Positions 10,988 to 64,000 of a DNA stretch of 64,000 nucleotides are shown piece after piece. The stretch lies in assembly GCA_047971285.1 (NCBI GenBank), contig JBKDZO010000066.1, forward strand, positions 2,491-66,490. Reading direction: 5' to 3'. The notes under the pieces were generated by a model that did not search any database, had not been told where the DNA came from, and saw only the letters and a program-made list of their open reading frames with translations. Made by a program: the position numbers and the translations under genes. The stretch is from Beutenbergiaceae bacterium. Lineage in GTDB: Bacteria; Actinomycetota; Actinomycetes; Actinomycetales; Beutenbergiaceae. Position 1 is the stretch's first letter, and every line of letters starts with the position of its first letter.

Positions 10988-13920
<2,933 letters not shown>

Positions 13921-48651: not shown

Positions 48652-49415
48652 AGCCAGTAGACCTGGTCGCCGATCCGCTGGAACTGACCGGGCGGATCGT
48701 CACGGCCTCCAACGCGACCTTCCTCGGTCAGGTCGGCTCGACGCAGGTGGTGTACAAACCCACGGCAGGGGAGGCGCCGCTGTGGGACTTCCCCGATCAC
48801 ACCCTCGCTCAACGGGAACTGGCCGCCTACCGGGTTTCGGAACTGCTCGGCTGGAATGTGGTACCGACAACCTGCACCAGGCTGGGCCCGTTCGGCCACG
48901 GCATGGTGCAACTGTGGCAGGAGCCGGACCCGGACCAGCAAGCGGTCACGCTGGTGCCCGCGGACCAATCGCTGGCGCCGGACCGGCTACCGGTATTCGA
49001 GGGTGTCGACGCCGATGGGGAGGCGGTGGCCCTGGTACACGAGGACAGCGCGCCATTGCGGCGGATGGCCATCTTCGACGTGCTGGTCAACAACGCAGAC
49101 CGCAAAGGTGGTCACGTGCTGGACATGAGCGACGGGCACCGGTTCGGCGTCGACCACGGGCTGACCTTCCACATCGAGCCCAAATTGCGCACCGTGCTGT
49201 GGGGCTGGGCGGGACAGCCACTGAGCAGCGAGGAAGCTGACGCGCTCACGCGGCTCCGGCAGGAATGGACCGAGCGCGTCGTCCCGGCCCTGAGCGACCT
49301 GCTGGTCGAGGCTGAGATCGACGCATTCGCGCGACGATACGACCAGCTCCTAGAGGCCGGTCGCTTTCCGGACCCGCATCATGGTTTGCCCCCGATCCCG
49401 TGGCCACCGTTCTGA
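48648..49415 (+). CDS. SCO1664-family protein, PI3/4-kinase / HipA-like atypical kinase fold
   Basis: Catalytic-loop-like VNNADRKGGHVL and DFG-like FGVDHGLTF. GTGA overlap with the upstream gene. Confidence 0.75.
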   Translation: MKPVDLVADPLELTGRIVTASNATFLGQVGSTQVVYKPTAGEAPLWDFPDHTLAQRELAAYRVSELLGWNVVPTTCTRLGPFGHGMVQLWQEPDPDQQAVTLVPADQSLAPDRLPVFEGVDADGEAVALVHEDSAPLRRMAIFDVLVNNADRKGGHVLDMSDGHRFGVDHGLTFHIEPKLRTVLWGWAGQPLSSEEADALTRLRQEWTERVVPALSDLLVEAEIDAFARRYDQLLEAGRFPDPHHGLPPIPWPPF

Positions 49416-49455
49416 GCGTGCGTTCAGAACCGCTGCGGACCGCTACGCTGCCAGC

Positions 49456-50583
49456 GTGATTGCCCCCGGTCCGAGCCTGTCCACCCTGGCCAGCAACGGC
49501 GGTGTGCTGATCGTCGGTACCGGCCTGATCGGCGCCAGTCTGGGCTTGGCTTTGACCGCTCGTGCGGTGCCGGTACGGCTGCAGGATGCCTCACCGGCCG
49601 CGCAAGCTCTGGCCCGCGACATCGGCGCTGGTGAGATCGCCGCACCCGATGACCTCGACCCGGCACTGGTCGTGATCGCAGCGCCCCCGGACGTCACCGC
49701 AGACCTGGTGGCACAGGCCCTTGGGCGGTACCCCGATGCCGCCGTGATCGACGTCGCGGGCGTGAAGTCGATCATCGAGATCGAACTGAGCCAGTCCGAA
49801 GATCTAGAACTGCATCGTTACCTCGGCTCCCACCCGATGGCCGGACGGGAACGACATGGCCCCGCGGCAGCCGACGGAGACCTGTTCGCGGGCCGCCCAT
49901 GGGTGCTGACGCCGAACCCCGCGACCGACCCGCAGCTGGTGAACCTGATCCGGGGCATGGTGCAGGACATCGGCGCCAGCCCGGTCGAGATGAGCGCCAC
50001 CGACCACGATCATGCGGTGGCGCTGGTCTCGCATCTGCCGCAACTGCTCTCATCCCTGGCTGCGGTCCGGCTGGTGGACGCACCCGAGGGTTCGTTGGCG
50101 CTGGCGGGACAGGGGTTGCGCGACGTGACCAGGATCGCTGCCAGCGATGCGCGATTGTGGGCATCGATTCTGGTTGGCAACGCCACACCGGTCCGCGATG
50201 CGCTGCTGGGTGTCCGGGCGGATCTGGACTCGCTGCTGCAGGCGCTGGACGCCGCCGGGAGCAACCCCCTGGCGGTCGGGTCCATGTCCGGCATCGCGCG
50301 CATCATCGCCGCGGGCAACACCGGTGTCGCCCGGATTCCCGGCAAGCATGGCGGTGCCCGCAAGGATTACGCCGCCGTGACCGTGTTGGTCCCCGACCGG
50401 CCAGGCGAACTGGGCCGCCTGTTCTCGGAAATCGGTGAAATCGGCGTCAATATCGAGGACTTCCACATGGATCACTCCCCACAGCAGAAGGTTGGCATGG
50501 CAACGGTCTCGGTGATTCCGTCCGCAGCCGCAGGGCTGGTGGCAGCTCTGGAGCAGCGTCAATGGCGGGTGGTTGTGGAATGA
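49456..50583 (+). CDS. tyrA: prephenate dehydrogenase
   Basis: Rossmann motif LIVGTGLIGASLGLAL, SHPMAGRE, and a C-terminal ACT-like segment (TVLVPDRPGELGRLFSEIGEIGVNIEDF). GTG 49456 is preferred to 49381, which overlaps the upstream gene. Confidence 0.85.
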   Translation: MIAPGPSLSTLASNGGVLIVGTGLIGASLGLALTARAVPVRLQDASPAAQALARDIGAGEIAAPDDLDPALVVIAAPPDVTADLVAQALGRYPDAAVIDVAGVKSIIEIELSQSEDLELHRYLGSHPMAGRERHGPAAADGDLFAGRPWVLTPNPATDPQLVNLIRGMVQDIGASPVEMSATDHDHAVALVSHLPQLLSSLAAVRLVDAPEGSLALAGQGLRDVTRIAASDARLWASILVGNATPVRDALLGVRADLDSLLQALDAAGSNPLAVGSMSGIARIIAAGNTGVARIPGKHGGARKDYAAVTVLVPDRPGELGRLFSEIGEIGVNIEDFHMDHSPQQKVGMATVSVIPSAAAGLVAALEQRQWRVVVE

Positions 50584-51275
50584 CCGGGATGCAACCGGGG
50601 GTCGTGGTCGCCATCGATGGGCCCTCCGGCTCGGGCAAGTCCACCATCAGCCGGCGCGTGGCCGGCTCCTTCGGCCTGGCCTACTTGGACACCGGAGCGA
50701 TGTACCGGGCCGCAGCCTGGTGGTGCCTGCGCGAAGGGGTCGATCTCGCCGACCAGGGTGCCGTGACCGCCGCCGTGCGGGAACTATCGTTGCAGATGGG
50801 CACCGACCCCCAGCAGCCAGGCGTGGTCGTCGGGGGAGAGGACGCCTCGGTGGTCATCCGCTCGACCGAGATCTCCACCGTCGTCAGCCGGGTCTCCACC
50901 AACCTAGACGTGCGCGCCCAGCTGATCCGGCTGCAACGCGAGGTCATCGACGAGGCCCGGCGTGGCCCGGGGATCATCGCCGAGGGCCGGGATATCACCA
51001 CCGTGGTCGCCCCGGATGCCGATGTCCGGATCCTGCTGGTGGCCGACGAGGCCGCCCGGCTGGCTCGCCGTGCTCAGGAAGTCCACGGAACCGCTGATGC
51101 GCGGGCGCTGGCGGCCACCCGCGACCAGGTTGTCCGGCGCGACGCCGACGACTCGACCGTGACCGACTTCCACACCGCCGCAGACGGTGTGGTCACCATC
51201 GATTCCACCCATATGACCCTGGAGCAGACCGTGGCGGCGGTACGCACCCTGGTCCTGTCAGCGAGGCAACAATGA
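50580..51275 (+). CDS. cmk: (d)CMP kinase
   Basis: IDGPSGSGKSTISR P-loop followed by YLDTGAMYRA. ATGA overlap with tyrA. Confidence 0.93.
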   Translation: MTGMQPGVVVAIDGPSGSGKSTISRRVAGSFGLAYLDTGAMYRAAAWWCLREGVDLADQGAVTAAVRELSLQMGTDPQQPGVVVGGEDASVVIRSTEISTVVSRVSTNLDVRAQLIRLQREVIDEARRGPGIIAEGRDITTVVAPDADVRILLVADEAARLARRAQEVHGTADARALAATRDQVVRRDADDSTVTDFHTAADGVVTIDSTHMTLEQTVAAVRTLVLSARQQ

Positions 51276-51979
51276 GCAGCTCCGGGACCTCTCGTCGCAC
51301 ACCGGGCCAGGAGGTCAAACCCGAACACATCCGCCGGTGGGGTCCGACCTGGTCGCGCCGGGTGGGCTGGTTCCTGGCACGGGTGATCTGGAACACCAAG
51401 ATCATCGGCGCGCAGAACGTCCCGGCGACGGGACGACTGCTGTTCGCGGCCAACCACACCGGGATCATCGACGGCCCGCTGCTGCACGGCTGCATCCCGC
51501 GCAACTCCCACTTCATCATCAAGGAGGAGGCGTTCACCGGTGTGATCGGCATCCTGATGCGCGGCGCGGGCCAGATCCCAGTGGATCGAGGCACCGGCCG
51601 GGCGGCGCTGACCACAGCATTGGCGCTACTGAATGAAGATCGTGCCGTCGGCGTCTTCCCCGAGGGGACCCGTGGTCGGGGAGATGTCAGCTCAGCCAAG
51701 GCGGGAATCGCGTGGCTGGCGGCCCGATCCGGAGCCCAGGTACTGCCGGTAGCGATCTTGGGCACCCGGCGGCCGGGGGACAAGCGCGGCTACATTCCCC
51801 GATTCCGGGCACGCCTGCACCTCGTCTTCGGGGAACCGTTCCAACCGGTACCCGGGGACGCCGAGACCGGCCGCGCCGCTGTCAGCGCAGCCAGTGAGCG
51901 GGTGCAGCAGGCCATGATCGATCACGTCAACGCCGCCATTGCGCTGACCGGCGTGGAGTTGCCGGATTCCGCTGACTGA
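51272..51979 (+). CDS. lysophospholipid (1-acyl-sn-glycerol-3-phosphate) acyltransferase
   Basis: HxxxxD motif ANHTGIIDG and the FPEGTRG motif. ATGA overlap with cmk. Confidence 0.85.
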   Translation: MSSSGTSRRTPGQEVKPEHIRRWGPTWSRRVGWFLARVIWNTKIIGAQNVPATGRLLFAANHTGIIDGPLLHGCIPRNSHFIIKEEAFTGVIGILMRGAGQIPVDRGTGRAALTTALALLNEDRAVGVFPEGTRGRGDVSSAKAGIAWLAARSGAQVLPVAILGTRRPGDKRGYIPRFRARLHLVFGEPFQPVPGDAETGRAAVSAASERVQQAMIDHVNAAIALTGVELPDSAD

Positions 51980-51994
51980 CCCTCGGATGCCGCC

Positions 51995-53515
51995 ATGGCC
52001 CGGGTGGTGAACAATGCTGGGGTGAGTCAAACCCCCACCGGCGCGCCCGAGGAACTCGAACCCCCCGCCGATGATGATCCGCGGCGGACCCGGGCGCTGC
52101 TAGCCGGACTGGACGAGTACGACCTGGACGAGGACGACGTCGCGCTGCTCGACGGCTCGGCGTCACAGCAGGCCTCCGGTGGGCAGGAGCAGGCCCTGCC
52201 CGTGCTGGCGGTCATCGGGCGCCCCAATGTCGGCAAGTCGACGCTGGTGAACCGGATCCTGGGCCGACGCGAAGCGGTGGTGCAAGACACCCCCGGTGTC
52301 ACCCGGGACCGCGTCACCTACGAGGCCGAGTGGGCCGGTCGGCGATTCCAGCTGATCGACACCGGCGGCTGGGAGCACGATGCCCGCGGCTTGAGCGGGC
52401 GTGTGGCCGAGCAGGCGGAAGCCGCGATCGTGCTGGCCGATGCGGTGCTGTTCGTGGTGGATGCCACCGTCGGAGCCACCAGTACCGATGAGCAGGTGGT
52501 GCGGTTGCTGCGCCGGTCGGCGAAGCCGGTGATCCTGGTCGCGAACAAGGTTGACGATGCGCGCGGGGAAGCGGACGCGACGGCGCTGTGGAACCTGGGC
52601 CTGGGCGAGCCGTTCGCGCTATCGGCACTGCACGGCCGCGGCTCGGGGGATCTGCTCGACGCCGCATTGGACCTGCTGCCGGCCCAGTCTGGTGGCAGCG
52701 GTCGGCTACCGTCGGCGGGGCCGCGCCGGGTAGCGCTGCTGGGACGCCCGAATGTGGGCAAGTCGTCCATGCTGAACGCACTGAGCAGGTCCGACCGGGT
52801 GGTGGTCGACGACGTCGCGGGTACCACCCGCGATCCGGTCGATGAACTGGTGCTGCTGGACGAACGCCCCTGGTGGTTCGTGGACACCGCAGGTATCCGG
52901 CGCCGAGTCCACCAAACCTCCGGCGCCGACTTCTATGCTTCGCTGCGGACCCAGACCGCGCTGGAACGTGCTGAGGTGGGCGTGGTGCTGGTCGACGCCA
53001 GCGTGCCGAGGACCGAGCAGGACATCCGGGTGATCCAGCAGGTCATCGACGCCGGCCGGGCGCTGGTGATCGCGTACAACAAATGGGACCTCACCGACCC
53101 GGACCGCCGTGACCTCCTGGAGCGGGAGATCGAACAGGACCTGGTGCAGGTGCGCTGGGCACCGAGGGTGAACCTGTCGGCCAAGACCAGGTGGCACACC
53201 AACCGCCTGGCGCCGGCGCTGGACGTGGCATTGGACTCCTGGGATTCCAGGATCCCCACCGGTCGGTTGAACGCCTTCCTGGGCGAGCTGGTGGCTGCGA
53301 ATCCGCATCCGGTGCGCGGCGGCAAGCAGCCGCGCATCCTGTTCGCCACCCAGGCCGACACCCGTCCGCCCCGGTTCGTGATCTTCGCCAGCGGGTTCCT
53401 GGAAGCCGGGTACCGCCGGTTCATCGAACGCCGGTTGCGGGAAGCGTTCGAGTTCACCGGCACGCCCATCGAGATCAGCGTGCGCGTGCGCGAAAAGCGC
53501 CGTCGCACCAAGTAG
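51995..53515 (+). CDS. der: ribosome biogenesis GTPase Der (EngA)
   Basis: Two GTPase domains ([16 protein letters not shown]; [16 protein letters not shown]) plus a KH-like C-terminus. Confidence 0.95.
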
Positions 53516-53531
53516 CCCGCGGAGCGCAACG

Positions 53532-54977
53532 ATGCTTGGGCTGGGGTTCGACATCGGCACCACCACCAGCAAGGTCGCGCTGATCGCCGTCGATGGGCCA
53601 GCGGTCAGTGAGGTTTCCAGCGCTAGTGCGCCAACACCTGCGACCGCCGAAGAACTCACCGACATGACCGCGGCGCTCTCACGCCGGGTCATGGGCCAGC
53701 GCCGGGCCCGGGTCGATGCGGTCGGGGTGGCTTCAATGGCCGAGTCGGGAGTGCCCGTTGACCGCCACGGCCGGGCCCTGACACCGATCTTGCGCTGGGA
53801 TGAAGGCCTCGGCAGGCAGGACGCCGAACTCCTGGCTGACCTGCGTGCAGACCTGTTCGCCGCGACCGGGGTGCGCCTGAGCGCCAAGACACCGTTGGCG
53901 ACCTGGGCCTGGCTGCGGCGCACCCACGGATCGACCTGGGCGCAGATGCGACGCTGGCTCAACATCGCTGACCTGGTGGTACGGGACCTGACCGGAGCAT
54001 CGGTGACCGATCACACCCTGGCCGGACGGACCGGCGGGTACCGGCTACCACCACGTCACGGTTCTCCGGCCTCGACCTTCGACCAGCAACTCCTGGAACT
54101 GGTGGGCTTGGCCCCACACCGCCTGCCTGCCGTCGCTGACCCCAGGCAATGCGCCGCTGCAGTCACCTCGGCCGCCGCTGGCCGGTACCTGTTGACCGGC
54201 GGCACACCGGTGGCCGTGGCGGGGCATGACCATCAGGTGGCCGCCTGGGCCGCCGGGGTGCGTAGGCCGGGCCAGTGCGCAGACTCGCTGGGTACCGCTG
54301 AGGCTGTGCTGTCACTTGTGTCGGAACGCCCGCCCCCGGCGTCGGTCGCGGCCGCGGGCATGAGCCTGACCCGGACGCCAGCGGGCATCCATGACGCCGT
54401 GGTGGGTGGCAGCGCCACGGCAGGCGCGGCGCTGCAGGCCTGGCTGGAACGCATACCCGCGGAGCTGCGGCCCCGAGTCCTGCACGACGCCGCAGCCGGT
54501 CTGGACCACGATCCGGAGCCGACCGGCCAGCCCGCGCTGCCCTACCTTCGCGGACGCCAGTGCCCGCAGCCGAATCCGATTGCGACCCCGAGCTGGCCAC
54601 CGGACGCCTGGCCCCTCGCTCGGCAGGCGCGGGCAGTGATGGAAGGCATCTGCTACCAGGGGCGGTGGATGGCACAGGCGCAAGGTGACCTGGGAGCCAG
54701 CCCCGAGCACATCGCGGTGATCGCCGGCACCCGGCTGCCACGTTTGTGGCGGCAGACGAAAACGGCCGTTTCGCCTTGGCCGTTGTCCTGGGTGGGCGCG
54801 GCCGAACCGGTGGCTGCCGGTGCAGCGCTGCTGGCGCTGGGTCGCGCCGGTGCCTTCGGTAGCCGGGAGCAGGCTCTGACCTCAGCGCCAACCCTCGCCA
54901 GCGAGACGATCGCAGCCGGGAATGATCCTCACCGGGCATCGTTCCGGGAGTTCGTGCGTCAAGCCGGCAGGGCCTGA
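53532..54977 (+). CDS. FGGY-family carbohydrate kinase, substrate unknown
   Basis: N-terminal LGFDIGTTTSKVALI actin-like ATPase motif. Length and layout fit the FGGY N and C domains. The sequence is divergent. Confidence 0.7.
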   Translation: MLGLGFDIGTTTSKVALIAVDGPAVSEVSSASAPTPATAEELTDMTAALSRRVMGQRRARVDAVGVASMAESGVPVDRHGRALTPILRWDEGLGRQDAELLADLRADLFAATGVRLSAKTPLATWAWLRRTHGSTWAQMRRWLNIADLVVRDLTGASVTDHTLAGRTGGYRLPPRHGSPASTFDQQLLELVGLAPHRLPAVADPRQCAAAVTSAAAGRYLLTGGTPVAVAGHDHQVAAWAAGVRRPGQCADSLGTAEAVLSLVSERPPPASVAAAGMSLTRTPAGIHDAVVGGSATAGAALQAWLERIPAELRPRVLHDAAAGLDHDPEPTGQPALPYLRGRQCPQPNPIATPSWPPDAWPLARQARAVMEGICYQGRWMAQAQGDLGASPEHIAVIAGTRLPRLWRQTKTAVSPWPLSWVGAAEPVAAGAALLALGRAGAFGSREQALTSAPTLASETIAAGNDPHRASFREFVRQAGRA

Positions 54978-55092
54978 ATCTGGTGCCGGGGGACTACTGC
55001 CCACCTGAGCTAGCGGGCGCGACGGCGGCTCTGCCGTAGATTTGACCCACACGTTTACGTTGAGCTGGACCACTGAGGCGAGGAATCTGACA

Positions 55093-56349
55093 ATGACTGA
55101 CGCTGCTGCCGCTGCTGCACCGCTTGAGCCGCCGGAGGCCGACGATGTGCTCACGCTCGACGCCCCAGAGCCGGTCGATGCCGTCACCACGACAGCAGCA
55201 CCGGCCATGGCGCCCAAGGTGGCACCGGAAATGGTCGAGGCACTGACCGCCAAGGCCGATTCCTACCTCGACGCACTGCTCGCCAGCGACACCAAGTCCC
55301 CGGAATACGCCAATCAGGCGGACTCGGTCCGGACCATGGGCGATCAGGACATCCGCCGCGCCGCGTCGGTCTCGAACCGGCTGCTGGCAACCCCGGTCAA
55401 GGAGATCAAGAGCGGTGGCCTGTCTGAATCGGGCACCGTCGGGCAATCGTTGGTGGCGTTGCGGCGCATGGTGGAAGATCTGGACCCCAGCGAGGCCAGC
55501 GTGGGCCGCAAGATCCTCGGTTTCATCCCCTTCGGTGACAAGCTCACCGACTACTTCCGCAGGTATGAGTCCTCGCAGGACCAACTCGATGCGATCATCA
55601 GATCGCTGTACAACGGCCAGGACGAACTGCGCAAGGACAACGCGGCCCTCAATCTGGAGAAGCGGAACCTGTGGGACACCATGGGCCGGCTGAACCAGTA
55701 CATCTACATGGCCGAGCGGATCGACGCCATGCTGTCTGCCAAAATCGCCGAGTTGGACAGTACCGATCCGGAACGTGCGAAGGCGCTGCGGGAAGACGTG
55801 CTGTTCTACGTGCGGCAAAAGCACCAGGACCTGCTGACGCAACTCGCCGTCTCGATCCAGGGCTACCTGGCGATGGACATCATCATCAAGAACAACCTGG
55901 AATTGATCAAAGGTGTGGACCGAGCCACAACCACCACCCTGTCGGCGCTGCGAACCGCCGTCATCGTGGCGCAGGCGCTGGCCAATCAGAAACTTGTGCT
56001 GGACCAGATCACTGCCTTGAACACCACCACCTCCAACCTCATCGTGGCCACCTCCAAGATGCTGGCCGACAACTCGGCGGACATCCAGGAGCAAGCTGCC
56101 AGCGCCACCGTGGGCATCGACGAACTGCAACAAGCCTTCGCCAACATCTATACGACGCTGGACAGCATCTCCACGTTCAAGGTGGCCGCACTGGACTCGA
56201 TGGCCCAAACGGTGGGCGTGCTGCAGACCGAGACCGCCAAGGCCAACGACTACCTGGAGCGCAGCCGCCGCTCCGAGCGGGCCGAATTGCAGGGCGGGGA
56301 ACTCAACGTCGACGGGCTGAACCTCGGCCCGGCCCAGGGCAACCGCTGA
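55093..56349 (+). CDS. TelA-like toxic anion resistance family protein
   Basis: Long helical protein with TelA-like segments (YLDALLASDTKSPEYANQADSVRTMGDQDIRRAA ... LDAIIRSLYNGQDELRKDNAAL). ATG 55093 was chosen. Confidence 0.85.
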   Translation: MTDAAAAAAPLEPPEADDVLTLDAPEPVDAVTTTAAPAMAPKVAPEMVEALTAKADSYLDALLASDTKSPEYANQADSVRTMGDQDIRRAASVSNRLLATPVKEIKSGGLSESGTVGQSLVALRRMVEDLDPSEASVGRKILGFIPFGDKLTDYFRRYESSQDQLDAIIRSLYNGQDELRKDNAALNLEKRNLWDTMGRLNQYIYMAERIDAMLSAKIAELDSTDPERAKALREDVLFYVRQKHQDLLTQLAVSIQGYLAMDIIIKNNLELIKGVDRATTTTLSALRTAVIVAQALANQKLVLDQITALNTTTSNLIVATSKMLADNSADIQEQAASATVGIDELQQAFANIYTTLDSISTFKVAALDSMAQTVGVLQTETAKANDYLERSRRSERAELQGGELNVDGLNLGPAQGNR

Positions 56350-56353
56350 CACG

Positions 56354-56860
56354 ATGGGCTGGTGGGACGATTTCGGGCGCAAGCTGCGCGGGGAGCCGGA
56401 ACCGATCGTGCTGCCCGAGCTCGCACCGGCCCCGACCGGTGAGGAGATTCTGGCCTCGGTCGAACGGGTCCGGGGCCAAGTCGCCGGGACGGTGCCGCCG
56501 GCTGTCGCCGCACGCGTCGAACGCATCGCCCGGACGGTGACCGAGATGGTGCCCCGCCTGGATCGGTTGGGTATGGGAAGCCAGCAGGCGCATACCGTGG
56601 TGGCCACCGCGACCAGCTATCTACCTGAAGCCGTGGGCGCGTACCTGCGGCTGCCGCGTAGTTTCGCCGACACCCGCGTGGTCGCCGACGGCAAGACCTC
56701 GCTGATGCTGCTGGTGGACCAGCTCGACCTGCTCGGCGCGACCCTGACGCAGATCTCGGACGCCGTATCACGCCAGGATGCCAATGCGCTGATCGCGCAC
56801 GGGGCCTTCCTGGAGGAGAAATTCTCCCGATCCTCCATCACACCTCCCGGAGCACCATGA
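56354..56860 (+). CDS. hypothetical soluble protein (168 aa)
   Basis: The ATG lies 4 nt after the TelA stop, and the 3' end makes an ATGA overlap with the AAA+ gene. High GC3, no TM segment, no motif I recognise. Confidence 0.6.
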   Translation: MGWWDDFGRKLRGEPEPIVLPELAPAPTGEEILASVERVRGQVAGTVPPAVAARVERIARTVTEMVPRLDRLGMGSQQAHTVVATATSYLPEAVGAYLRLPRSFADTRVVADGKTSLMLLVDQLDLLGATLTQISDAVSRQDANALIAHGAFLEEKFSRSSITPPGAP

Positions 56861-58497
56861 CCAACCTGACCCTCGCGCAAGCGCTGGCGGAACTTGAACA
56901 GGTGGCTAAGCAGGCTGGTCTGCCGGCGGGCGTGGCCCGCGACGAAGGCAAACGGCTCGCGGCTGCTGTTGCCGAATCCGCGCCGGGAGCACCGGCGCAC
57001 TGGCTGGAGCAGACCGGTGGCGGGGACCTGAGCGAGTTCTTCACGGCCGCCTCTGCCGGTCGCCGCTGGCGCAGCACACCCACCGACGCGCTGGTCCACC
57101 TGCGCGGCGGACCGTATGCCGCCCGCTACGCGCAGGCACTGGCCGAGGTGGTGCGTGCCGGTGCCGCCCTGGGTGAACCTGGACCCCACGTCGCCCCCCG
57201 GGCAGCGGCCACGGTTGCCGTGCAACTGGGTGGTCCGACACCACCGACGCAGGATGCCTTCTCTCGTCCGGTCATGAATCCAAGCAGTGCCGGTGCGGCC
57301 GCGCTGACGGACCTGCTCCGGGCTGGCCCCGGGCCGGACTTGAGTGCGCTGCCAGTCTCGGGCCTGGAACCGGCCGTTCCCAGTGTGGGCTCGATCCTCA
57401 ATGCCCTGGGTGCGGACACCGCCAGGCCTGGGGATCCGGCCACCGAGACGTTCCGGGCCGCTGCCCCCGACTCCGCCGATGTTGCGCAACCGGCGGCGCA
57501 GCAGGAACAGGCTGCCCAGGCTGACGTGGCCGAAGAGCCCGAGGAACTACCGACGCTGCCCGAACTGCTCGACGAGCTCGATGCCCTGACCGGGCTGGAA
57601 ACCGTGAAGGCACAGGTACGCCGCCAGGTGGAGCTGCTCCGGATAGAGCAGTTGCGCGTCGACGCGGGCCTGACCAGCCCCACGTTGACCCGGCACCTGG
57701 TGTTCGTGGGCAACCCCGGCACCGGGAAGACGACGGTGGCGCGGTTGATCGCGGGGATCTACCGGGCGTTGGGGCTGCTGTCCAGCGGCCATCTGGTGGA
57801 GGTCGACCGATCCGAACTGGTGGCCGGGTACCTGGGCCAGACCGCCATCAAGACCGCGGAACTGGTGGCCACGGCTGTCGGTGGGGTGTTGTTCGTCGAC
57901 GAAGCCTATGCACTGACCGAATCCAAGGGTGCCAGCGGGGCGGACAGCTACGGTCAAGAAGCGGTCAACACCCTGGTCAAGGAGATGGAGGACCATCGCG
58001 ATGATCTGGTGGTGATCGTGGCCGGCTACCCGGTCCCCATGGCGCAGTTCATCGCGGCGAATCCGGGATTGGAATCCCGGTTCTCGACGACCATCGATTT
58101 CGATGACTACACCGACACCGAGCTGCGCACCATCTTCGAGTCGATGGCGCAATCGGCGGATTTTGAACCGACCGAACGGGCACTGGAACGAGTGGAGGAG
58201 ATCTGCTCGGTGCAACTGCGTGATTCCTCGTTCGGCAACGCGCGGTTCGTGCGCAACCTGCTTGATGCCTCGATCATCCGGCATGCCTGGCGGCTGCGGG
58301 ACGTGACCGAGCCGAGCATCGACGAACTGCGGCGCCTGCTTCCGGAGGATTTAGTGCCCGAGTCCGAGGACCCTGAGGCAGGACCGTCCCCCGACGACGG
58401 CATCCACAGCACGCAGCAGCACGAGCCGGACCCGGCGGTCCCGACGCCACCCGCCGACGTACCTGCACCGACCACTGACCTTGGGGAGGACGCGTGA
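56857..58497 (+). CDS. CbxX/CfxQ/SpoVK-type AAA+ ATPase with a large novel N-terminal region
   Basis: Walker A FVGNPGTGKTTVAR, Walker B VLFVDEAYAL and GYPVPMAQFIAANPGLESRF, as in the CbxX/EccA class. The roughly 230-aa Ala/Pro-rich N-terminus is unassigned. Confidence 0.88.
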   Translation: MTNLTLAQALAELEQVAKQAGLPAGVARDEGKRLAAAVAESAPGAPAHWLEQTGGGDLSEFFTAASAGRRWRSTPTDALVHLRGGPYAARYAQALAEVVRAGAALGEPGPHVAPRAAATVAVQLGGPTPPTQDAFSRPVMNPSSAGAAALTDLLRAGPGPDLSALPVSGLEPAVPSVGSILNALGADTARPGDPATETFRAAAPDSADVAQPAAQQEQAAQADVAEEPEELPTLPELLDELDALTGLETVKAQVRRQVELLRIEQLRVDAGLTSPTLTRHLVFVGNPGTGKTTVARLIAGIYRALGLLSSGHLVEVDRSELVAGYLGQTAIKTAELVATAVGGVLFVDEAYALTESKGASGADSYGQEAVNTLVKEMEDHRDDLVVIVAGYPVPMAQFIAANPGLESRFSTTIDFDDYTDTELRTIFESMAQSADFEPTERALERVEEICSVQLRDSSFGNARFVRNLLDASIIRHAWRLRDVTEPSIDELRRLLPEDLVPESEDPEAGPSPDDGIHSTQQHEPDPAVPTPPADVPAPTTDLGEDA

Positions 58498-59765
58498 GCG
58501 CACTCGTCACGCAACCGGCGCGCCCGGCCCAGCCGCAGGCGCAGCAGCAACCGAACGGGCCCTCTGGCGGAGGTTTCGCCTCGGCCAGGCGGATCACCGT
58601 CATCTCGATCACTGCGGTGGTCGTGTGCCTGCTCGTGGCCATCGGGGGGTTCATCGCCGCCCAACGGCAGGCGGCGGGTATGGATCGTGCGGTGCAGAAC
58701 ACCGGCCGAGTGCTGGATGTGATGAACCTCGGCATCGCCCTGCTGGAAGCCGACGGTGCCGCCACCAACGCCTTCCTGGTGGGCGGGCTGGAGCCGGTGG
58801 AACGCCGCGCCGTCTACGACGAATCGATCGCAGAGGCCGCGACGCTTCTGGCCGGGCTGGCCGAAGGTGCCGAGTCGGATTCCGAGAGGCTGGCGGCACT
58901 CAACGTCAACCTGGTCACCTATACCGGCTTGGTGGAGGCCGCCCGGGTCAACAACCGGCTCGGCTTCCCGGTCGGTTCGGCGTACCTGGATCAGGCATCC
59001 ACTCTCATGCGCGAGGTGATGCTGAAGCAGGTCGATGGCCTGCTGGAGACAGCCGCCGATGAGGCTGCAGGCGACTTCTCCGCTAGCAACTGGGTGTTCG
59101 GCCTGCTCGCCGTTCTCGCGGTTGCCGTCGTGGCACTGGTGTGGTGCCAGTATCAGCTCGCGAGCATCACCAAACGACGCTTGAACCGTGGCCTGGTCTT
59201 GGCCTCGGCGCTGCTGATCATTGCGTTCATCACCACCCAGGTCGCCGCCGTCGGCGCTGCGAACGCCGTCAACGACGCACGTACCGAGGTCTACCGGCCC
59301 ACCCTGGCGGTGGCGCAGGCCACTGTGCTGGCGTCACAGGCACGTTCGCTGGAGTCGTTCACGCTGATCAAACGCGGTTCAGGCCAGGCCTATGAGGAAG
59401 AGTTCCAGGAGCTGACCGCCGAGGCGGCCCAGGTGCTGCCCGCGAGCCACCACCAGTTGGCTCCGCTGCTCTCGGACTGGGTCAGCGGACACAATGAGAT
59501 CCGGGCACTGGACGATGCCGGTGACTGGGACGGCGCGGTGGAACTGGCTGTGAGTACAGCTCCGGACAGCCCGTCGGTTGCCTTTGAGGTGTTCATCGGC
59601 CAGGCCACCGACGCGATCGTCGAGGAGTCGGACACCCTGAGCAGGACCCTGGCCGACGGTGCGTGGTCCGCATCGTTGACAGCATGGTCATTGGCAGTGC
59701 TGGGTTTGCTGGCGGTGGTGGTCGGCTGGCGCGGACTGGCTGTGCGGCGGGAGGAGTACCGATGA
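58494..59765 (+). CDS. glnX: GlnX-like four-TM membrane protein with two extracytoplasmic helical domains
   Basis: Four hydrophobic spans: ITAVVVCLLVAIGGFIAA, WVFGLLAVLAVAVVALVW, LVLASALLIIAFITTQVAAVGA and AWSLAVLGLLAVVVGW. They bracket two helical domains of about 150 aa each. Position immediately upstream of glnH, with GTGA and ATGA overlaps. Confidence 0.65.
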   Translation: MSALVTQPARPAQPQAQQQPNGPSGGGFASARRITVISITAVVVCLLVAIGGFIAAQRQAAGMDRAVQNTGRVLDVMNLGIALLEADGAATNAFLVGGLEPVERRAVYDESIAEAATLLAGLAEGAESDSERLAALNVNLVTYTGLVEAARVNNRLGFPVGSAYLDQASTLMREVMLKQVDGLLETAADEAAGDFSASNWVFGLLAVLAVAVVALVWCQYQLASITKRRLNRGLVLASALLIIAFITTQVAAVGAANAVNDARTEVYRPTLAVAQATVLASQARSLESFTLIKRGSGQAYEEEFQELTAEAAQVLPASHHQLAPLLSDWVSGHNEIRALDDAGDWDGAVELAVSTAPDSPSVAFEVFIGQATDAIVEESDTLSRTLADGAWSASLTAWSLAVLGLLAVVVGWRGLAVRREEYR

Positions 59766-60754
59766 AGCACCTGCGTTCTTCGCGCTCACGGCGCCCTTGG
59801 GCGGTGCTGGCGCTGACGGTGGCACTGGTGGGCGGCTTGGGCGCGTGCAACCTTGACACCGGGCTGGATGACTTGGGCGGCGAATCGCCGGAGCCTACCG
59901 AGACCGACGACGGTGGCTCAGGTTCGGGACCCACCACCACGGTGACCTGTGACGATCCGGTGCAGTCCTATGAACCGACGGAGGCCTTGCCCAGCCCCGG
60001 CGTCATGCCCGCCGGTAGCACCATGGCCACCATTGCCGAGCGTGGTTCCCTGATCGTCGGTGTCTCTGCGGACACCCTGCTCATGGGGTCCCGGAACCCG
60101 TTCACCGGGGAGATCGAAGGCTTCGACATCGACATTCTGCGGGAGGTGTCCCGCGCGATCTTCGGAGACCCCGATCGGCTGCAATTCCGGGTCATCACCT
60201 CGGCGCAGCGCATCGAGGTGCTGACGGCGGGAGAGGTGGACGTGGTGGCGCGCGCGTTCACGATCACCTGCGCCCGGTGGGAGGAGATCGCGTTCTCGGC
60301 CGAGTACTACCACTCCGGCCAGAAGGTGCTGGTGGCTGCGGGCTCGCCCGTGCTGGGGTTGGACGACCTGGCCGGGAACCGGGTGTGCGCGCCGGCCGGG
60401 ACCACCACGTTGGCCAGGCTGGGGGACTACCCGGAGGTGACCGCCGTCCCCGCACCCACCCATAGCCAGTGCTTGGCGCTGTTCCAGCAGGGCAAGGTCG
60501 ATGCGATCACCGGCGATGACACCATTCTCGCGGGCTTCGCTGCTCAGGACCCGTACGCGCAGGTTGTGGGTGATCCGATCAGCGACGAGCCCTACGGCCT
60601 GGGCATCCCGCCGGAGAACCGCGACATGGTGCGGTTCGTCAATGGCGTGCTGGAGCAGATCGTGGCCGATGGTACGTGGACCGAGATCTACGACCGGTGG
60701 CTGGACGGCCTGGGCCCAGCACCCACGCCGCCGGTACCGGTGTACGGGCGGTAG
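59762..60754 (+). CDS. glnH: GlnH-like amino-acid (Asp/Glu-type) binding lipoprotein
   Basis: Signal peptide plus the lipobox LGACN. Family-3 solute-binding motifs (GSLIVGVSADTLLMG ... GFDIDILREV ... VDVVARAFTIT). No cognate permease or ATPase nearby, consistent with a sensor role. Confidence 0.85.
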   Translation: MKHLRSSRSRRPWAVLALTVALVGGLGACNLDTGLDDLGGESPEPTETDDGGSGSGPTTTVTCDDPVQSYEPTEALPSPGVMPAGSTMATIAERGSLIVGVSADTLLMGSRNPFTGEIEGFDIDILREVSRAIFGDPDRLQFRVITSAQRIEVLTAGEVDVVARAFTITCARWEEIAFSAEYYHSGQKVLVAAGSPVLGLDDLAGNRVCAPAGTTTLARLGDYPEVTAVPAPTHSQCLALFQQGKVDAITGDDTILAGFAAQDPYAQVVGDPISDEPYGLGIPPENRDMVRFVNGVLEQIVADGTWTEIYDRWLDGLGPAPTPPVPVYGR

Positions 60755-60762
60755 CGGGCTTG

Positions 60763-61899
60763 ATGAACACCGAATCGTACGTGTCCGGCAGACTGCCCCG
60801 ACCACCGGGTCAACTTGGGCAGGCGGCGAGCGCCACCGAGCTGCTGCAGTTCCTGGAGCAGTTGCTGGACTGGTTGGAACGCACCCGGGGTGAACTGGAC
60901 CGGCTGGATGAGCTGGCCAGCCAGAGCCCCGCCGCCGGCAGCTACACCAGCGATGTGGTGCTAGCGATGGCGTTGTGGCAAGCGCTGCGTACCCGCGCCG
61001 ACGCAGTGATGGACGAATGGGACTCCGGCAGAGCCGATCAGATCGGCCGGGAACGGATCTCCGAACTAATCTGGGGCCGGCTCGGTGCCGGGGCGCTGGA
61101 CGTGACCCTGCCCGAGGGCGCGCGCCTGGTCGATGCGCTGATCGCTCAGCTGCGGGAGGGTCTGGCCGTCGACCCGGCAACCACCGAGCTGCTGAGCCGG
61201 TTGCGGCGGGTCAAGGCCGAGCTCGTCCGGTGCGAGGACCTTGTCGGTTCCAGTACCGGTGCCCAGGAGGTCGAACAGCTGCGCTCCCTGACCGGCCGCG
61301 AGCAGCGGCTGCGCGCCGACGCCGAACGGGGAGCCGACGTCACCGGCCGGCTGGCCGAGCTGGAGGCCGCAACCGCGGGCCTGCACCGCGACCTGCTGGT
61401 CTCGGTGGCCCAGTCCGGGGAGTTGCGCCGGGATCGGGCGCACGCACAGGAATTGCAGCAGAGCCTGATCGCCCGCCGGCCGATGCTGCTGGAACTGGAA
61501 GCACGGTGCCGGCGGGAGATCGCCGATCCACCGAGATTGGCGATACCCGACGCCTCCCGGCTGGGTGAGCCGCCGGCCGACCGCGCCGGGGTGGATGCGT
61601 ACATGGCGCGCCTGGATGCTGCCTCCCGCGCGGTGGCCGCAGCGGAGGCCGCCTATGCCGCGCCGCTGCGGGAGCGAGCGTCCTTGCGCTACCGGCTGGC
61701 GCAGGCTCAGGCATTGGCGCAGGCGCACGGCCGCGATGACTCAGCCACCGTGCAGGCGGCCGCAACCGAGGCCACCGGGGCCCTGGATGCGCTGCCCTGT
61801 GATGTGCTGATGGCACGGGCGCTGGTGGGGCAGTACGAGTACGTGGCGGCCCCGCTGAATCTTGATCGAGGGGCAGAAGTGGCTGGAGGTCAACGGTGA
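60763..61899 (+). CDS. hypothetical Ala/Leu/Arg-rich coiled-coil protein inserted between glnH and pknG
   Basis: The ATG lies 8 nt after the glnH stop, and its own stop overlaps the pknG GTG (GTGA). No TM segment. Long heptad-like helices (LRSLTGREQRLRADAERGADVTGRLAELEAATAGLHRDL). Confidence 0.6.
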   Translation: MNTESYVSGRLPRPPGQLGQAASATELLQFLEQLLDWLERTRGELDRLDELASQSPAAGSYTSDVVLAMALWQALRTRADAVMDEWDSGRADQIGRERISELIWGRLGAGALDVTLPEGARLVDALIAQLREGLAVDPATTELLSRLRRVKAELVRCEDLVGSSTGAQEVEQLRSLTGREQRLRADAERGADVTGRLAELEAATAGLHRDLLVSVAQSGELRRDRAHAQELQQSLIARRPMLLELEARCRREIADPPRLAIPDASRLGEPPADRAGVDAYMARLDAASRAVAAAEAAYAAPLRERASLRYRLAQAQALAQAHGRDDSATVQAAATEATGALDALPCDVLMARALVGQYEYVAAPLNLDRGAEVAGGQR

Positions 61900-64000
61900 G
61901 TAGTACCACGGCATGTCAGGAGCCGGGCTGTACCGGCAGCTATCAGGATGGCTGGTGCGACGTCTGCGGTTCGAAGCAGCCGGGCGGTTCGGGATCGCCT
62001 GCTACACCCGCCGCGACGACACCGGCCAGCGTTTCGCCGTCGGCGGTCCTGGGGTCGGGCACTGCGGCACCGAGCAGCGCACCGGTGGCACCGGTCGGCG
62101 AATCCGAACCGGAGCACGGTTCCACCCGGACCTCGTCGGCACGATTGGCCTCCGCCGCGATCGGTTCGGCCCGCGTCGGCTCGAAGGTGACCCGAAGGCT
62201 GGGCACCGGCTCCACCCGGCTGCGCGCCCAGCGGCTGGGGGCCGGGCTGACCACGGTGCCGTCCATTCCTGTTGCGGATCCGCTCCAGGAGGTGATGGCG
62301 GTCGCGGAGGTACCGGAATCGAAGCGGTTCTGCTCCAGCTGTCAGGGGCCGGTGGGCCGGTCGCACGACGGGAACCAGGGGCGCACCGCCGGATTCTGTC
62401 CTGCGTGTGGCGCCGCGTATGACTTCGACCCGAGCCTGCAGCCCGGAGAGGTGGTCGGCGGCCAATACGAGGTGGTCGGTGTCCTGGCGCATGGTGGCCT
62501 GGGATGGATCTATCTGGCCCGGGACCGCAACGTATCCGGACGCTGGGTGGTGCTGAAGGGTCTGCTGAACTCCGATGACGCCGACGCGGTGGAGGCCGCG
62601 ATCACCGAACGCCAGTTCCTGGCCGAGGTGGAACATCCGCTGATCGTGGAGATCTACAACTTCGTCACCCACCGCGGCGCCGGTTACACGGTGATGGAGT
62701 ACGTCGGCGGGACATCCCTGAAGCAGATCCTCAAGGATCGGCAGGCAGCCCACGGCGGCGTTGTCACACCGTTGCCGGTCGATCAGGCTCTGGCCTACGT
62801 GCTGGAGGTGCTGCCGGCGTTTGCTTACCTGCACGATCACAACCTGGTCTACTGCGACTTCAAACCCGACAACATCATCCAGGCCGGCGGGAGCGTGAAG
62901 CTGATCGACCTGGGTGGGGTGCGCCGAGTCGACGACAGCACCTCCGCCATCTTCGGGACCAAGGGCTACCAGGCTCCCGAGGTCGGTGAGGAACTACCAT
63001 CACCGGCGTCGGACATCTACACCATCGGCCGCACCTTGGCCACACTGGTGCTGAACTTCCGCGGGAACACCTCGACGTACCTTTCGTCGCTGCCGCCGGT
63101 TGCGGAGACTCCGTTGTTCGGGCGGTACGACTCGTTCTATCGGCTGCTCGCCAAGGCTTGTGCGTTCGACCCCAACGACCGGTTCGCCACCGTCGATGAG
63201 TTGCGGGTTCAGCTGCTGGGAGTGCTGCGCGAGGTCGTGGCCACCGACGACGGCGGAAAGAACGCTGCCACCACCTCGCTTGCCTCACCGCACTTCCACG
63301 CTCCCACGGTCGATGTTCCGGAGCGCCCGCTGCGGTGGGACGAACTACCACGGCTCAGCGTCGATCCCGGCGATCCGATGGTCAGCTTCCTGGCCGGGGT
63401 CAACGTGGCCGACCCGGTGGATCGGTTGAGCATTCTGACCACCGCACCGGAGGTCACCGCGGAGGTGAACCTGGCCAAGGCCTCGGCCGCTCTGGCGGCA
63501 AGGCAGCTGGACATGGTCCGGCACATCCTGGCCGAGATGCTGGCGAGTGACCCTTGGGAATGGCGGGCGCACTGGGTCGGGGGTGTCGCCGACCTGGCGG
63601 CCGGTGATGCGACCTCCGCGATGGCCTCGTTCAACGCCACCTATGGTCAGGTACCGGGGGAGCTGGCACCGAAGCTGGCCCTGGCCACCGCATGTGAGCT
63701 CGGGGGCGAGTCGCAGATCGCGGAGTCGCTGTACCAGATCTGCGCGGCCACCGATGCGAACTATGCGGCGGCCTCCGCTTTCGGCCTGGCCCGGATCCGG
63801 CAAGCACGTGGCGACATCGACGGGGCGCTATCGGCCCTCGATCTGGTGGCGCCGACCCGTAGCTCCTACCCGGCAGCACGGTTGCAACGCGCCGCCGCAC
63901 TGACCCGCTCGGCCAGTGGTATCAGCGACCTGGACGAGGCATTGCGGAGCCTGGACGGAATCGCGATCGAACCGGAGGCCGCCGCGGATCTCCGGATCCA
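61896..64000 (+). CDS. pknG: PknG-like serine/threonine protein kinase (Zn ribbon, rubredoxin-like, kinase and TPR domains), 3'-truncated by the window end
   Basis: This ORF is absent from the supplied track because it has no stop inside the window. My translation from GTG 61896 is open to position 64000. It contains GGQYEVVGVLAHGGLGWIYLARDRNVSGRWVVLKGL, ERQFLAEVEHPLIVEIYNFV, YCDFKPDNII and the CxxC/CxxCG pair FCSSCQG ... FCPACGAAYDF. These closely parallel mycobacterial PknG. A TPR-like tail begins after about 63400. Confidence 0.9.
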   Translation, partial: MSSTTACQEPGCTGSYQDGWCDVCGSKQPGGSGSPATPAATTPASVSPSAVLGSGTAAPSSAPVAPVGESEPEHGSTRTSSARLASAAIGSARVGSKVTRRLGTGSTRLRAQRLGAGLTTVPSIPVADPLQEVMAVAEVPESKRFCSSCQGPVGRSHDGNQGRTAGFCPACGAAYDFDPSLQPGEVVGGQYEVVGVLAHGGLGWIYLARDRNVSGRWVVLKGLLNSDDADAVEAAITERQFLAEVEHPLIVEIYNFVTHRGAGYTVMEYVGGTSLKQILKDRQAAHGGVVTPLPVDQALAYVLEVLPAFAYLHDHNLVYCDFKPDNIIQAGGSVKLIDLGGVRRVDDSTSAIFGTKGYQAPEVGEELPSPASDIYTIGRTLATLVLNFRGNTSTYLSSLPPVAETPLFGRYDSFYRLLAKACAFDPNDRFATVDELRVQLLGVLREVVATDDGGKNAATTSLASPHFHAPTVDVPERPLRWDELPRLSVDPGDPMVSFLAGVNVADPVDRLSILTTAPEVTAEVNLAKASAALAARQLDMVRHILAEMLASDPWEWRAHWVGGVADLAAGDATSAMASFNATYGQVPGELAPKLALATACELGGESQIAESLYQICAATDANYAAASAFGLARIRQARGDIDGALSALDLVAPTRSSYPAARLQRAAALTRSASGISDLDEALRSLDGIAIEPEAAADLRI

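Follow-up and report, generated by a model that had tools for sequence, protein, structure and literature searches.

Is PknG, the kinase encoded with GlnX and GlnH in the three-gene amino-acid-sensing operon of Corynebacterium glutamicum and Mycobacterium tuberculosis, part of a larger system in other actinobacteria? The question is raised by a 64,000-nucleotide stretch of Beutenbergiaceae bacterium DNA (assembly GCA_047971285.1, contig JBKDZO010000066.1), referred to here as the window, at the end of which seven successive genes on the + strand lead from a TelA-family gene to pknG. A previous reading of this DNA (the sequence-only reading) had interpreted them as one seven-gene unit, in which four genes are added to the canonical three, and had proposed a larger, undescribed assembly around PknG. 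The open reading frame positions (55093-64000) bear out the run of seven overlapping genes, but the window ends within an operon that comprises ten genes in its relatives. Judged by gene content and order, the PknG locus of the sampled non-corynebacterial lineages usually takes this ten-gene form, and we consider it very probable that it is a single conserved operon encoding functionally linked proteins.

The first gene of the window cluster (g1, 55093-56349, + strand) has an ATG start and encodes a TelA-family protein of 418 residues. It is followed on the same strand by g2 (56354-56860), encoding an orphan helical protein of 168 residues; g3 (56857-58497), encoding an AAA+ ATPase of 546 residues; g4 (58494-59765), encoding a GlnX-family sensor of 423 residues with four transmembrane segments; g5 (59762-60754), encoding a GlnH-type amino-acid-binding lipoprotein of 330 residues; g6 (60763-61899), encoding an orphan all-alpha protein of 378 residues; and g7 (61896-64000), encoding a PknG orthologue of at least 701 residues, incomplete at the end of the window. 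When the sequence was re-read, the junctions from g1 to g7 were identical to those first reported, namely a 4-nucleotide gap, ATGA, GTGA, ATGA, an 8-nucleotide gap and GTGA. The reported absence of terminator-like hairpins between the gene pairs also held: a consensus scan of the + strand from 53000 to 64000 found neither terminator-like nor sigma-70-like sites, and since the gaps are only 4 and 8 nucleotides long, there is no room for an intergenic terminator. No Rfam match was obtained within 54000-64000.

To place the cluster in a wider context, a PknG alignment was scanned against one genome per species (185,579 species); at least 580 relatives matched, of which the best 80 were kept, together with 10 kb of flanking sequence on either side. 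These loci are the best-scoring PknG relatives and a non-random sample, and the frequencies given below are not descriptive of all Actinomycetota. Genes were mapped by tblastn using the window proteins and three downstream proteins from one relative (L003), and upstream genes were counted only where at least 7.5 kb was available 5' of pknG. Among the loci with sufficient flank, g6 was found in 67/67, TelA, g2 and the AAA+ ATPase each in 66/67, GlnX in 64/67 and GlnH in 63/67, colinear and on one strand. The sequence-only reading had put forward such co-occurrence outside Corynebacteriales as a test of its proposal, and the extra genes are indeed conserved there. The three genes downstream of pknG, which are known from the relatives (the closest being Pseudactinotalea, with 72% PknG identity), encode a PP2C phosphatase (69/69 loci with sufficient flank), a vWA protein and an FHA protein (each 68/69). 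The resulting order is TelA, g2, AAA+ ATPase, GlnX, GlnH, g6, PknG, PP2C, vWA and FHA, and the complete colinear array, with a median span of 12.5 kb, is present in 57 of the 62 loci for which both flanks are available. Order and strand are kept down to ~51% PknG identity. The flanking genes, on the other hand, vary from locus to locus, and it is therefore the block itself that is conserved; since the flanks vary, and since the gene 3' of the FHA gene is convergent in Pseudactinotalea, the block can be delimited as running from telA through the FHA gene.

With taxon labels as given in the database records, the loci belong to Micrococcales (Pseudactinotalea, Cellulomonas, Oerskovia, Cellulosimicrobium, Promicromonospora, Rathayibacter, Intrasporangiaceae and Dermatophilaceae), Propionibacteriales (Kribbella, Nocardioides, Microlunatus and Propionibacteriaceae), Kineosporiaceae and Jatrophihabitantaceae, and to metagenome-assembled genomes (MAGs) labelled Pseudonocardiales, Mycobacteriales and Ilumatobacteraceae. 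Contigs encoding distant g6 homologues carry the same seven genes in the same order, followed by PP2C, vWA and FHA. One record labelled Pyrinomonadaceae (Acidobacteriota) also carries the complete ten-gene cluster, on a 2.8-Mb contig (L065; 56% PknG identity, 72% G+C); this is probably an actinobacterial MAG under a wrong label, the alternative being horizontal transfer.

The junctions between the genes are conserved together with their order. When each gene is taken to begin at the in-frame start codon closest to the stop of the preceding gene, a rule that favours small gaps, an exact 4-nucleotide overlap is found between GlnX and GlnH in 68/71 loci, AAA+ and GlnX in 66/69, g6 and PknG in 75/82, PknG and PP2C in 71/82, vWA and FHA in 51/73, GlnH and g6 in 45/74 (with a 1-nucleotide overlap in 11 more), and g2 and AAA+ in 40/69; the median gap is 30 nucleotides between TelA and g2 and 2 nucleotides between PP2C and vWA. 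An exact overlap of this length at 60-96% of loci is far above what random in-frame starts would be expected to produce. With both the order and the 4-nucleotide overlaps shared by dozens of divergent genomes, chance is far from accounting for the arrangement. From the spacing and overlaps of the genes, we infer that the array is transcribed as one unit with coupled translation, as the sequence-only reading had proposed.

The median identity of the window proteins to their relatives is highest for TelA (64.6%), followed by AAA+ (58%), g2 (57%) and PknG (56.8%), and is lower for g6 (36.5%) and GlnX (35%), the two components that, on this measure, evolve fast. The searchable PknG literature to July 2026 describes the three-gene operon only and does not mention the seven extra genes; PknG papers call the three-gene operon 'widely conserved' in Actinobacteria or Corynebacteriales. 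The sequence-only reading treated the extra genes as add-ons to the canonical three. Their presence is borne out, but they more likely represent the common form of the locus, from which the three-gene operon of Corynebacteriales would be derived by reduction.

The constant centre of the array is formed by g6 and PknG. The g7 protein contains the three domains of PknG (Pfam PknG_rubred, E = 9e-25; Pkinase, 6e-30; PknG_TPR, 4e-37), and its matches in the PDB are M. tuberculosis PknG (2pzi, E = 8.6e-126) and C. glutamicum PknG (7mxb, 3.8e-87). Its relatives have a median length of 787 residues, and the catalytic Lys (VVLKG) and the CDFKPDN and DLGG motifs are conserved. An extra N-terminal CxxC..CxxC zinc ribbon (encoded within 61896-61970) distinguishes this kinase from M. 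tuberculosis PknG, for which none has been described.

The g6 gene is directly 5' of pknG in all 67 loci. Its product consists of an N-terminal half (residues ~1-220, with a WDSGR motif) and a C-terminal part (~265-366). An AlphaFold2 model built from the family alignment (pLDDT, the predicted local distance difference test score, 91.6) is all-alpha with long helices; the label 'coiled-coil' given by the sequence-only reading is a loose one. No match to g6 was found in Pfam, NCBIfam or PADLOC, no family recurred when every member of its alignment was scanned against Pfam at E ≤ 1, and Foldseek searches of the PDB gave no significant solved fold (best E = 0.6), the matches for g6 and g2 being confined to designed helical repeats and assorted bundles. 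A profile of g6 retrieved 1024 cluster representatives at E ≤ 1e-3 among 1.84 billion, and both g6 and g2 are, judged by such homologues, real protein families. A Pfam match of g6 to Vta1 (E = 0.16) is not significant and was not used.

In two clean single open reading frames (P0347, 842 residues, and P0357, 613 residues), the N-terminal ~215 residues of g6 are fused through two to three zinc ribbons to the kinase, and P0347 carries the PknG TPR domain in addition. Three other candidate fusions (P0314, P0344 and P0351) were discarded as frameshift artefacts with Arg/Pro-rich out-of-frame stretches. Since g6 always adjoins pknG and its N-terminal half occurs fused to the kinase, it would be a dedicated cytoplasmic partner of PknG, as an adaptor or a regulatory subunit.

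Upstream of this pair, the sensor components follow the known pathway. In the orthologous GlnH-GlnX-PknG pathway, GlnH is the extracellular amino-acid-binding protein and GlnX is tied to PknG by genetic evidence; in the proposed model, GlnX relays ligand occupancy across the membrane and PknG is activated via its TPR domain (PMC6069109, PMC9769921, PMC8546545). The g4 protein matches the GlnX family model NF058618 (278.6 bits; cut-off 250) without reaching the Corynebacteriales equivalog NF041460 (107 against 780), and the Pfam family Sensor_actino (PF28326) matches a protein in locus L001 that is identical to g4. It has four hydrophobic segments and two periplasmic domains of ~140 residues, the topology determined for C. 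glutamicum GlnX (PMC9769921). The parts predicted to be cytoplasmic are an N-terminus of ~34 residues (as compared with ~110 in C. glutamicum), a 9-residue loop and an 8-residue C-terminal tail. Although GlnX is only ~35% identical overall, the tail (59739-59762, the last eight codons of g4) has a ..G..R..EEYR pattern that is at least 95% conserved among 69 sequences. The concave face of the TPR domain has been proposed as the site of GlnX (PMC8546545), and we infer that the tail is a docking peptide for the TPR domain of PknG or for g6. In two loci that lack GlnH, a divergent GlnX-like protein with four transmembrane segments lies directly 5' of g6 and ends in ..EEYR or ..KEYS (L064, 7615-8865; L084, 7438-8688). 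The GlnX tail also recalls the C-terminal acidic peptides that are bound by TPR domains.

The g5 protein has a signal peptide, a lipobox (LGAC, Cys29) and an SBP_bac_3 domain (Pfam, E = 1.7e-25), and aligns over residues 61-328 with M. tuberculosis GlnH (6h1u, E = 1.9e-69). The side chain of the ligand is contacted in the latter by Arg147, Thr162 and Trp232 (PMC6069109). According to the alignment with 6h1u, the contact corresponding to Arg147 is kept in g5, with Thr162 replaced by Ala and Trp232 by His, and Lys161, also on the side of the ligand's side-chain carboxylate, by Arg; the backbone-binding Arg169 and Asp250 are kept, with Ser164 replaced by Thr. With two of the three side-chain contacts changed, g5 does not show the Asp/Glu-specific contact pattern.

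Overall, the likeness to the GlnX-GlnH-PknG pathway thus comprises an orthologous kinase with rubredoxin, kinase and TPR domains, an orthologous lipoprotein of the substrate-binding type, a GlnX-family sensor of the same topology with four transmembrane segments, and the order glnX-glnH 5' of pknG. The locus differs in that g6 intervenes between glnH and pknG, so that the three-gene operon as such is not found, and in having three genes ahead of glnX and three behind pknG. Further differences are the two altered contacts in GlnH and an in-operon FHA protein that is not OdhI.

The three downstream genes add a phosphatase and two further signalling proteins to the kinase. In the relatives, gene 8 encodes a PP2C phosphatase whose N-terminus carries a double zinc ribbon, gene 9 a vWA protein (VWA and VWA_3_C domains), and gene 10 a protein in which two zinc ribbons are combined with a C-terminal FHA domain. 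PknG, PP2C and FHA begin with similar CxxC..(D/E)GYCxxCG ribbons, of which PP2C and FHA have two each (in L003, encoded in segments 13507-13730 and 15945-16260, respectively), and these common N-terminal ribbons suggest a shared docking mode. The catalytic motifs of PP2C are conserved, as is the metal-ion-dependent adhesion site (MIDAS) motif DxSGS..T..D of the vWA protein; given also the conserved motifs of PknG and the Walker motifs of the AAA+ protein, the PP2C, PknG and AAA+ enzymes should be active. The in-operon FHA protein was considered as a candidate OdhI/GarA and rejected, as it scores 21.5 bits against a cut-off of 200 for the OdhI model.

A comparable set of proteins has been described as the TerY-P triad, which consists of a TerY-like vWA protein, a PP2C and a zinc-ribbon Ser/Thr kinase (PMC10542128). 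The PknG array resembles it in that a zinc-ribbon kinase, a PP2C and a free-standing vWA protein are encoded side by side, and in its association with TelA; PknG, PP2C and vWA are adjacent in 68/69 of the relatives' loci, while the window itself shows the kinase only. It differs in that the kinase is PknG, with an N-terminal zinc ribbon and a TPR domain, in that an FHA protein is added, and in its wiring to a periplasmic amino-acid sensor and an AAA+ ATPase. In PADLOC, the vWA protein has no match, the kinase has generic matches only, and PP2C has one weak match to an unrelated candidate model (PDC-M21C, 5.8e-6). The suggestion of a larger, undescribed assembly around PknG is supported, with the amendment that its kinase-PP2C-vWA part resembles a known triad. 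Literature searches linking PknG with TelA or vWA, or TelA with PP2C and vWA, returned nothing relevant. The 2012 comparative-genomics study of Ter and TelA by Anantharaman, Iyer and Aravind is said to describe TelA complexes with a kinase-PP2C switch, perhaps including periplasmic-binding-protein domains, and part of the TelA neighbourhood may already be drawn there.

At the head of the operon, g1 matches the TelA family over its full length (Pfam PF05816, E = 7.4e-94, 315 bits against a cut-off of 30, profile positions 6-332 of 332), and has no hydrophobic or transmembrane segment. The match is what it shares with the TelA/KlaA/YceH toxic-anion-resistance proteins, for which TelA examples are known beside ter genes or on plasmids; here, by contrast, TelA heads a PknG operon. 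The g2 protein is marked by the motif AHTVVATATSYLPEAV..YLRLPR.FAD. At E ≤ 1e-3 it has 904 homologues, none of the 120 listed being informatively named, and it has no match in Pfam, NCBIfam or PADLOC. Its AlphaFold2 model, from the family alignment, is a helical bundle (pLDDT 82.6) for which Foldseek found no significant solved fold in the PDB (best E = 0.07, to designed repeats). A Foldseek match of g2 to the ESCRT-III protein Shrub (E = 0.15) is not significant and was set aside.

The g3 protein has an N-domain (residues ~1-125), a low-complexity linker and, at ~235-500, an AAA plus AAA_lid_6 module (Pfam). Its closest structures in the PDB are CbbX (E = 2e-56) and EccA1 (E = 6e-49), with a module 45-50% similar to that of the CbbX/EccA/SpoVK proteins, and the Walker A (GNPGTGKTT) and Walker B (VLFVDEAY) motifs are intact and at least 95% conserved. 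All of its NCBIfam equivalog scores are below cut-off (TIGR02881, 254.9 against 422.95; TIGR03922, 230.4 against 466.65; TIGR02880, 225.8 against 459.25), and by these scores g3 is within the CbbX/EccA/SpoVK clade but outside all three named families. CbbX is the activase of red-type Rubisco and EccA an ATPase of type VII secretion; g3 has neither a Rubisco nor an ESX context. The first ~125 residues of g3 are conserved and belong to no Pfam family, whereas EccA has TPRs there. As with g2 and g6, every member of the N-domain alignment was scanned against Pfam at E ≤ 1, and no family recurred.

The region 5' of telA carries two kinds of conserved motif. A GGAAC-N16-18-CGT[CT] motif, which we take to resemble the sigma-E-type promoters of extracytoplasmic function (ECF) sigma factors, is found in 35/69 loci, compared with 0.015 expected per 400 nucleotides; the form GGGAACCGCGTAGATTG-N6-CGTC, which fits GGAAC-N17-CGTC, occurs in L002, L003, L023-L057 and others. 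A link to stress is hinted at by this ECF-like motif. The window contains a single match to CGTAGATT, a -10-like TAnnnT element (55035..55042, + strand) located 51 nucleotides 5' of the TelA ATG, which is a candidate core of the operon promoter. The CGTA[GC]ATT core is found 5' of TelA in 21/69 loci including the window (background 0.0003 per 400 nucleotides), and other genera have different TAnnnT elements at the equivalent place. As CGTAGATT overlaps an alternative TTG start at 55042, the ATG at 55093 is favoured as the start of TelA.

The mechanism that we propose extends beyond GlnH-GlnX-PknG, and three parts can be distinguished. The g6 protein would be the cytoplasmic adaptor or regulatory subunit of PknG. 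PknG, PP2C, FHA and vWA would act together as a TerY-P-like switch of reversible threonine phosphorylation, with the kinase as writer, the FHA protein as reader, PP2C as eraser and the vWA protein as scaffold. TelA, g2 and the AAA+ protein would constitute a stress-linked arm, either as an output or as a second input that reports membrane or envelope stress, with the CbbX/EccA-type ATPase remodelling a TelA/g2 assembly. This overall outline (a ten-gene PknG operon with g6 as adaptor, a phospho-switch, a TelA stress arm and a reduced form in Corynebacteriales) is in our view somewhat better supported than its negation, and any single contact within it is less certain. We hold to be less likely than not the broadest form of the proposal, in which PknG in most Actinomycetes is the catalytic centre of a membrane-proximal machine of about ten proteins, g6 as an obligate partner couples the GlnX tail to the kinase, the PP2C/FHA/vWA switch sets the phosphorylation state, the remodelled TelA-g2 assembly ties amino-acid sensing to envelope or membrane stress, and the Mycobacterium/Corynebacterium pathway is a stripped-down derivative.

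A similar logic is found in the threonine-phosphorylation pathway that serves the H1 type VI secretion system (T6SS) of Pseudomonas aeruginosa, which employs PpkA (a kinase with a vWA domain), PppA (a PP2C) and Fha1, the lipoprotein and periplasmic sensors TagQRST, and the recruited AAA+ protein ClpV1. The parts list is the same, namely kinase, PP2C, FHA, vWA, lipoprotein sensor and AAA+. However, there are no T6SS genes in the PknG array, the proteins are non-orthologous and the vWA protein is a separate cytoplasmic one; the analogy is one of logic only.

Several observations weigh against the proposed mechanism. Three genes suffice for the well-studied pathway. Gene spacing, synteny and the two fusions are the grounds for proposing co-transcription and protein contacts; of the fusions, P0347 is from a single 32-kb Propionibacteriaceae MAG contig and P0357 is a database protein free of context. 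The roles given to g2, g6 and the AAA+ N-domain, which have no recognisable family or fold, are guesses. The ECF-like GGAAC motif is absent 5' of telA in the window itself, which together with its closest relatives (L007 and L008) retains only the CGTAGATT core. Because the Thr162 and Trp232 contacts are changed, the ligand of the window GlnH may differ from Asp/Glu. The in-operon FHA protein is not OdhI/GarA, and a search of the 64-kb window with an approximate query sequence, a weak negative, found no OdhI/GarA-like gene; a tie to 2-oxoglutarate dehydrogenase is therefore conjectural here.

The array can also be taken apart, and this bears on the possibility that it combines separate systems (TelA-g2-AAA+, GlnX-GlnH-(g6)-PknG and PP2C-vWA-FHA) that share a transcript for historical reasons without acting on one another. 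The blocks are lost singly: Pseudofrankia sp. EUN1h has seven genes (L089, 6135-15871; GlnX, GlnH, a 460-residue protein, PknG, PP2C, vWA and FHA) and lacks TelA, g2 and AAA+, as does, similarly, L086; Rathayibacter lacks vWA and FHA; and GlnH is missing from three or four Propionibacteriales loci (L046, L064 and L084, and L077 too). Corynebacteriales keep three genes only, and the TelA/g2 and PP2C/vWA junctions are short gaps, not overlaps. Against a purely historical association, gene order and strand persist to ~51% PknG identity while the flanks change, and 4-nucleotide overlaps span the boundaries between the supposed modules (AAA+/GlnX, 66/69; PknG/PP2C, 71/82). In addition, a Propionibacteriaceae MAG locus (L087, 8305-14082) has lost AAA+, GlnX, GlnH and PP2C and yet keeps TelA and g2 (the latter assigned by hhalign with a probability of 100%, E = 7e-52) joined to the g6-kinase fusion P0347, vWA and a short FHA protein, which is hard to explain without a functional tie. 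We therefore regard separate systems as unlikely. As far as these variants show, the system is modular: the g6-PknG pair is its constant centre, and TelA-g2 stay attached to this centre even where the amino-acid sensor is gone. The 460-residue protein of Pseudofrankia has only its C-terminal ~100 residues in common with g6, and g6 itself is therefore made of two separable modules.

A second possibility is that the pathway is the canonical one and the additional proteins are passive accessories, serving as chaperones or assembly factors for GlnX, GlnH and PknG; AAA+ and TelA might then, for example, assist membrane insertion, and g6 might stabilise PknG. Such roles would suit the relatives of g3, as CbbX, EccA and SpoVK are remodelling or chaperone-like ATPases, and the constant position of g6 beside pknG. 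They do not suit PP2C, the FHA reader and the vWA protein, which are parts of signalling systems and not chaperones. Moreover, TelA-g2 persist in L087 without GlnX and GlnH, and TelA is more conserved than any sensor component. We consider this improbable.

We rate as very improbable a role in anti-phage defence or conflict of the Ter/TerY-P type, with TelA and a kinase-PP2C-vWA switch setting off the defensive response and the resemblance to metabolic PknG signalling secondary: TerY-P triads and TelA are tied to resistance to phage and toxic compounds (PMC10542128), triads of kinase, PP2C and vWA occur in actinobacterial conflict systems (PMC7159879), and the AAA+ protein weakly matches the defence ATPases IetA/IteA, but PADLOC matches only a generic kinase and AAA (with none for vWA, TelA, g2 or g6), the cluster contains no nuclease or other effector, the loci examined hold one conserved array across related genera, with neither mobile-element nor defence genes among those neighbours for which annotations were seen, and the kinase, the substrate-binding protein and the sensor are clear orthologues of a metabolic regulator.

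If the mechanism proposed here is correct, its consequences would reach beyond the bacterium from which the window derives. In M. tuberculosis, PknG is both a virulence factor and a drug target, and in industry it offers a lever on glutamate production. Seven further proteins, if used by most actinobacteria, would be candidates for the missing steps in its activation by GlnX, among them an always-adjacent helical partner that is occasionally fused to the kinase, a phosphatase dedicated to the pathway, an FHA protein as reader and a vWA protein as scaffold; the question is also raised of what has replaced them in mycobacteria. TelA, a widespread 'toxic anion resistance' protein of unclear mechanism, would gain its first defined signalling context, if this is true, and two orphan families (g2, with ~900 homologues, and g6, with ~1000 cluster representatives) would be placed in a testable one. 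Cellulomonas, Kribbella, Nocardioides and Rathayibacter are easily cultured carriers.

Upstream of the cluster, the window encodes on the same strand (49381-54977) prephenate dehydrogenase (tyrA), cytidylate kinase (cmk), an acyltransferase, the GTPase Der/EngA and an FGGY sugar kinase. These housekeeping neighbours are separated from telA by 115 nucleotides and are not conserved beside the cluster in other genera. The window has a G+C content of 68%, and its many long antisense open reading frames are a usual by-product of this composition. Over telA (55000-56500), the G+C content falls to 62.7-63.1%, compared with 68-72% on both sides, a dip that probably reflects the conserved Lys/Asn/Ile/Thr-rich sequence of the protein and not a foreign origin.

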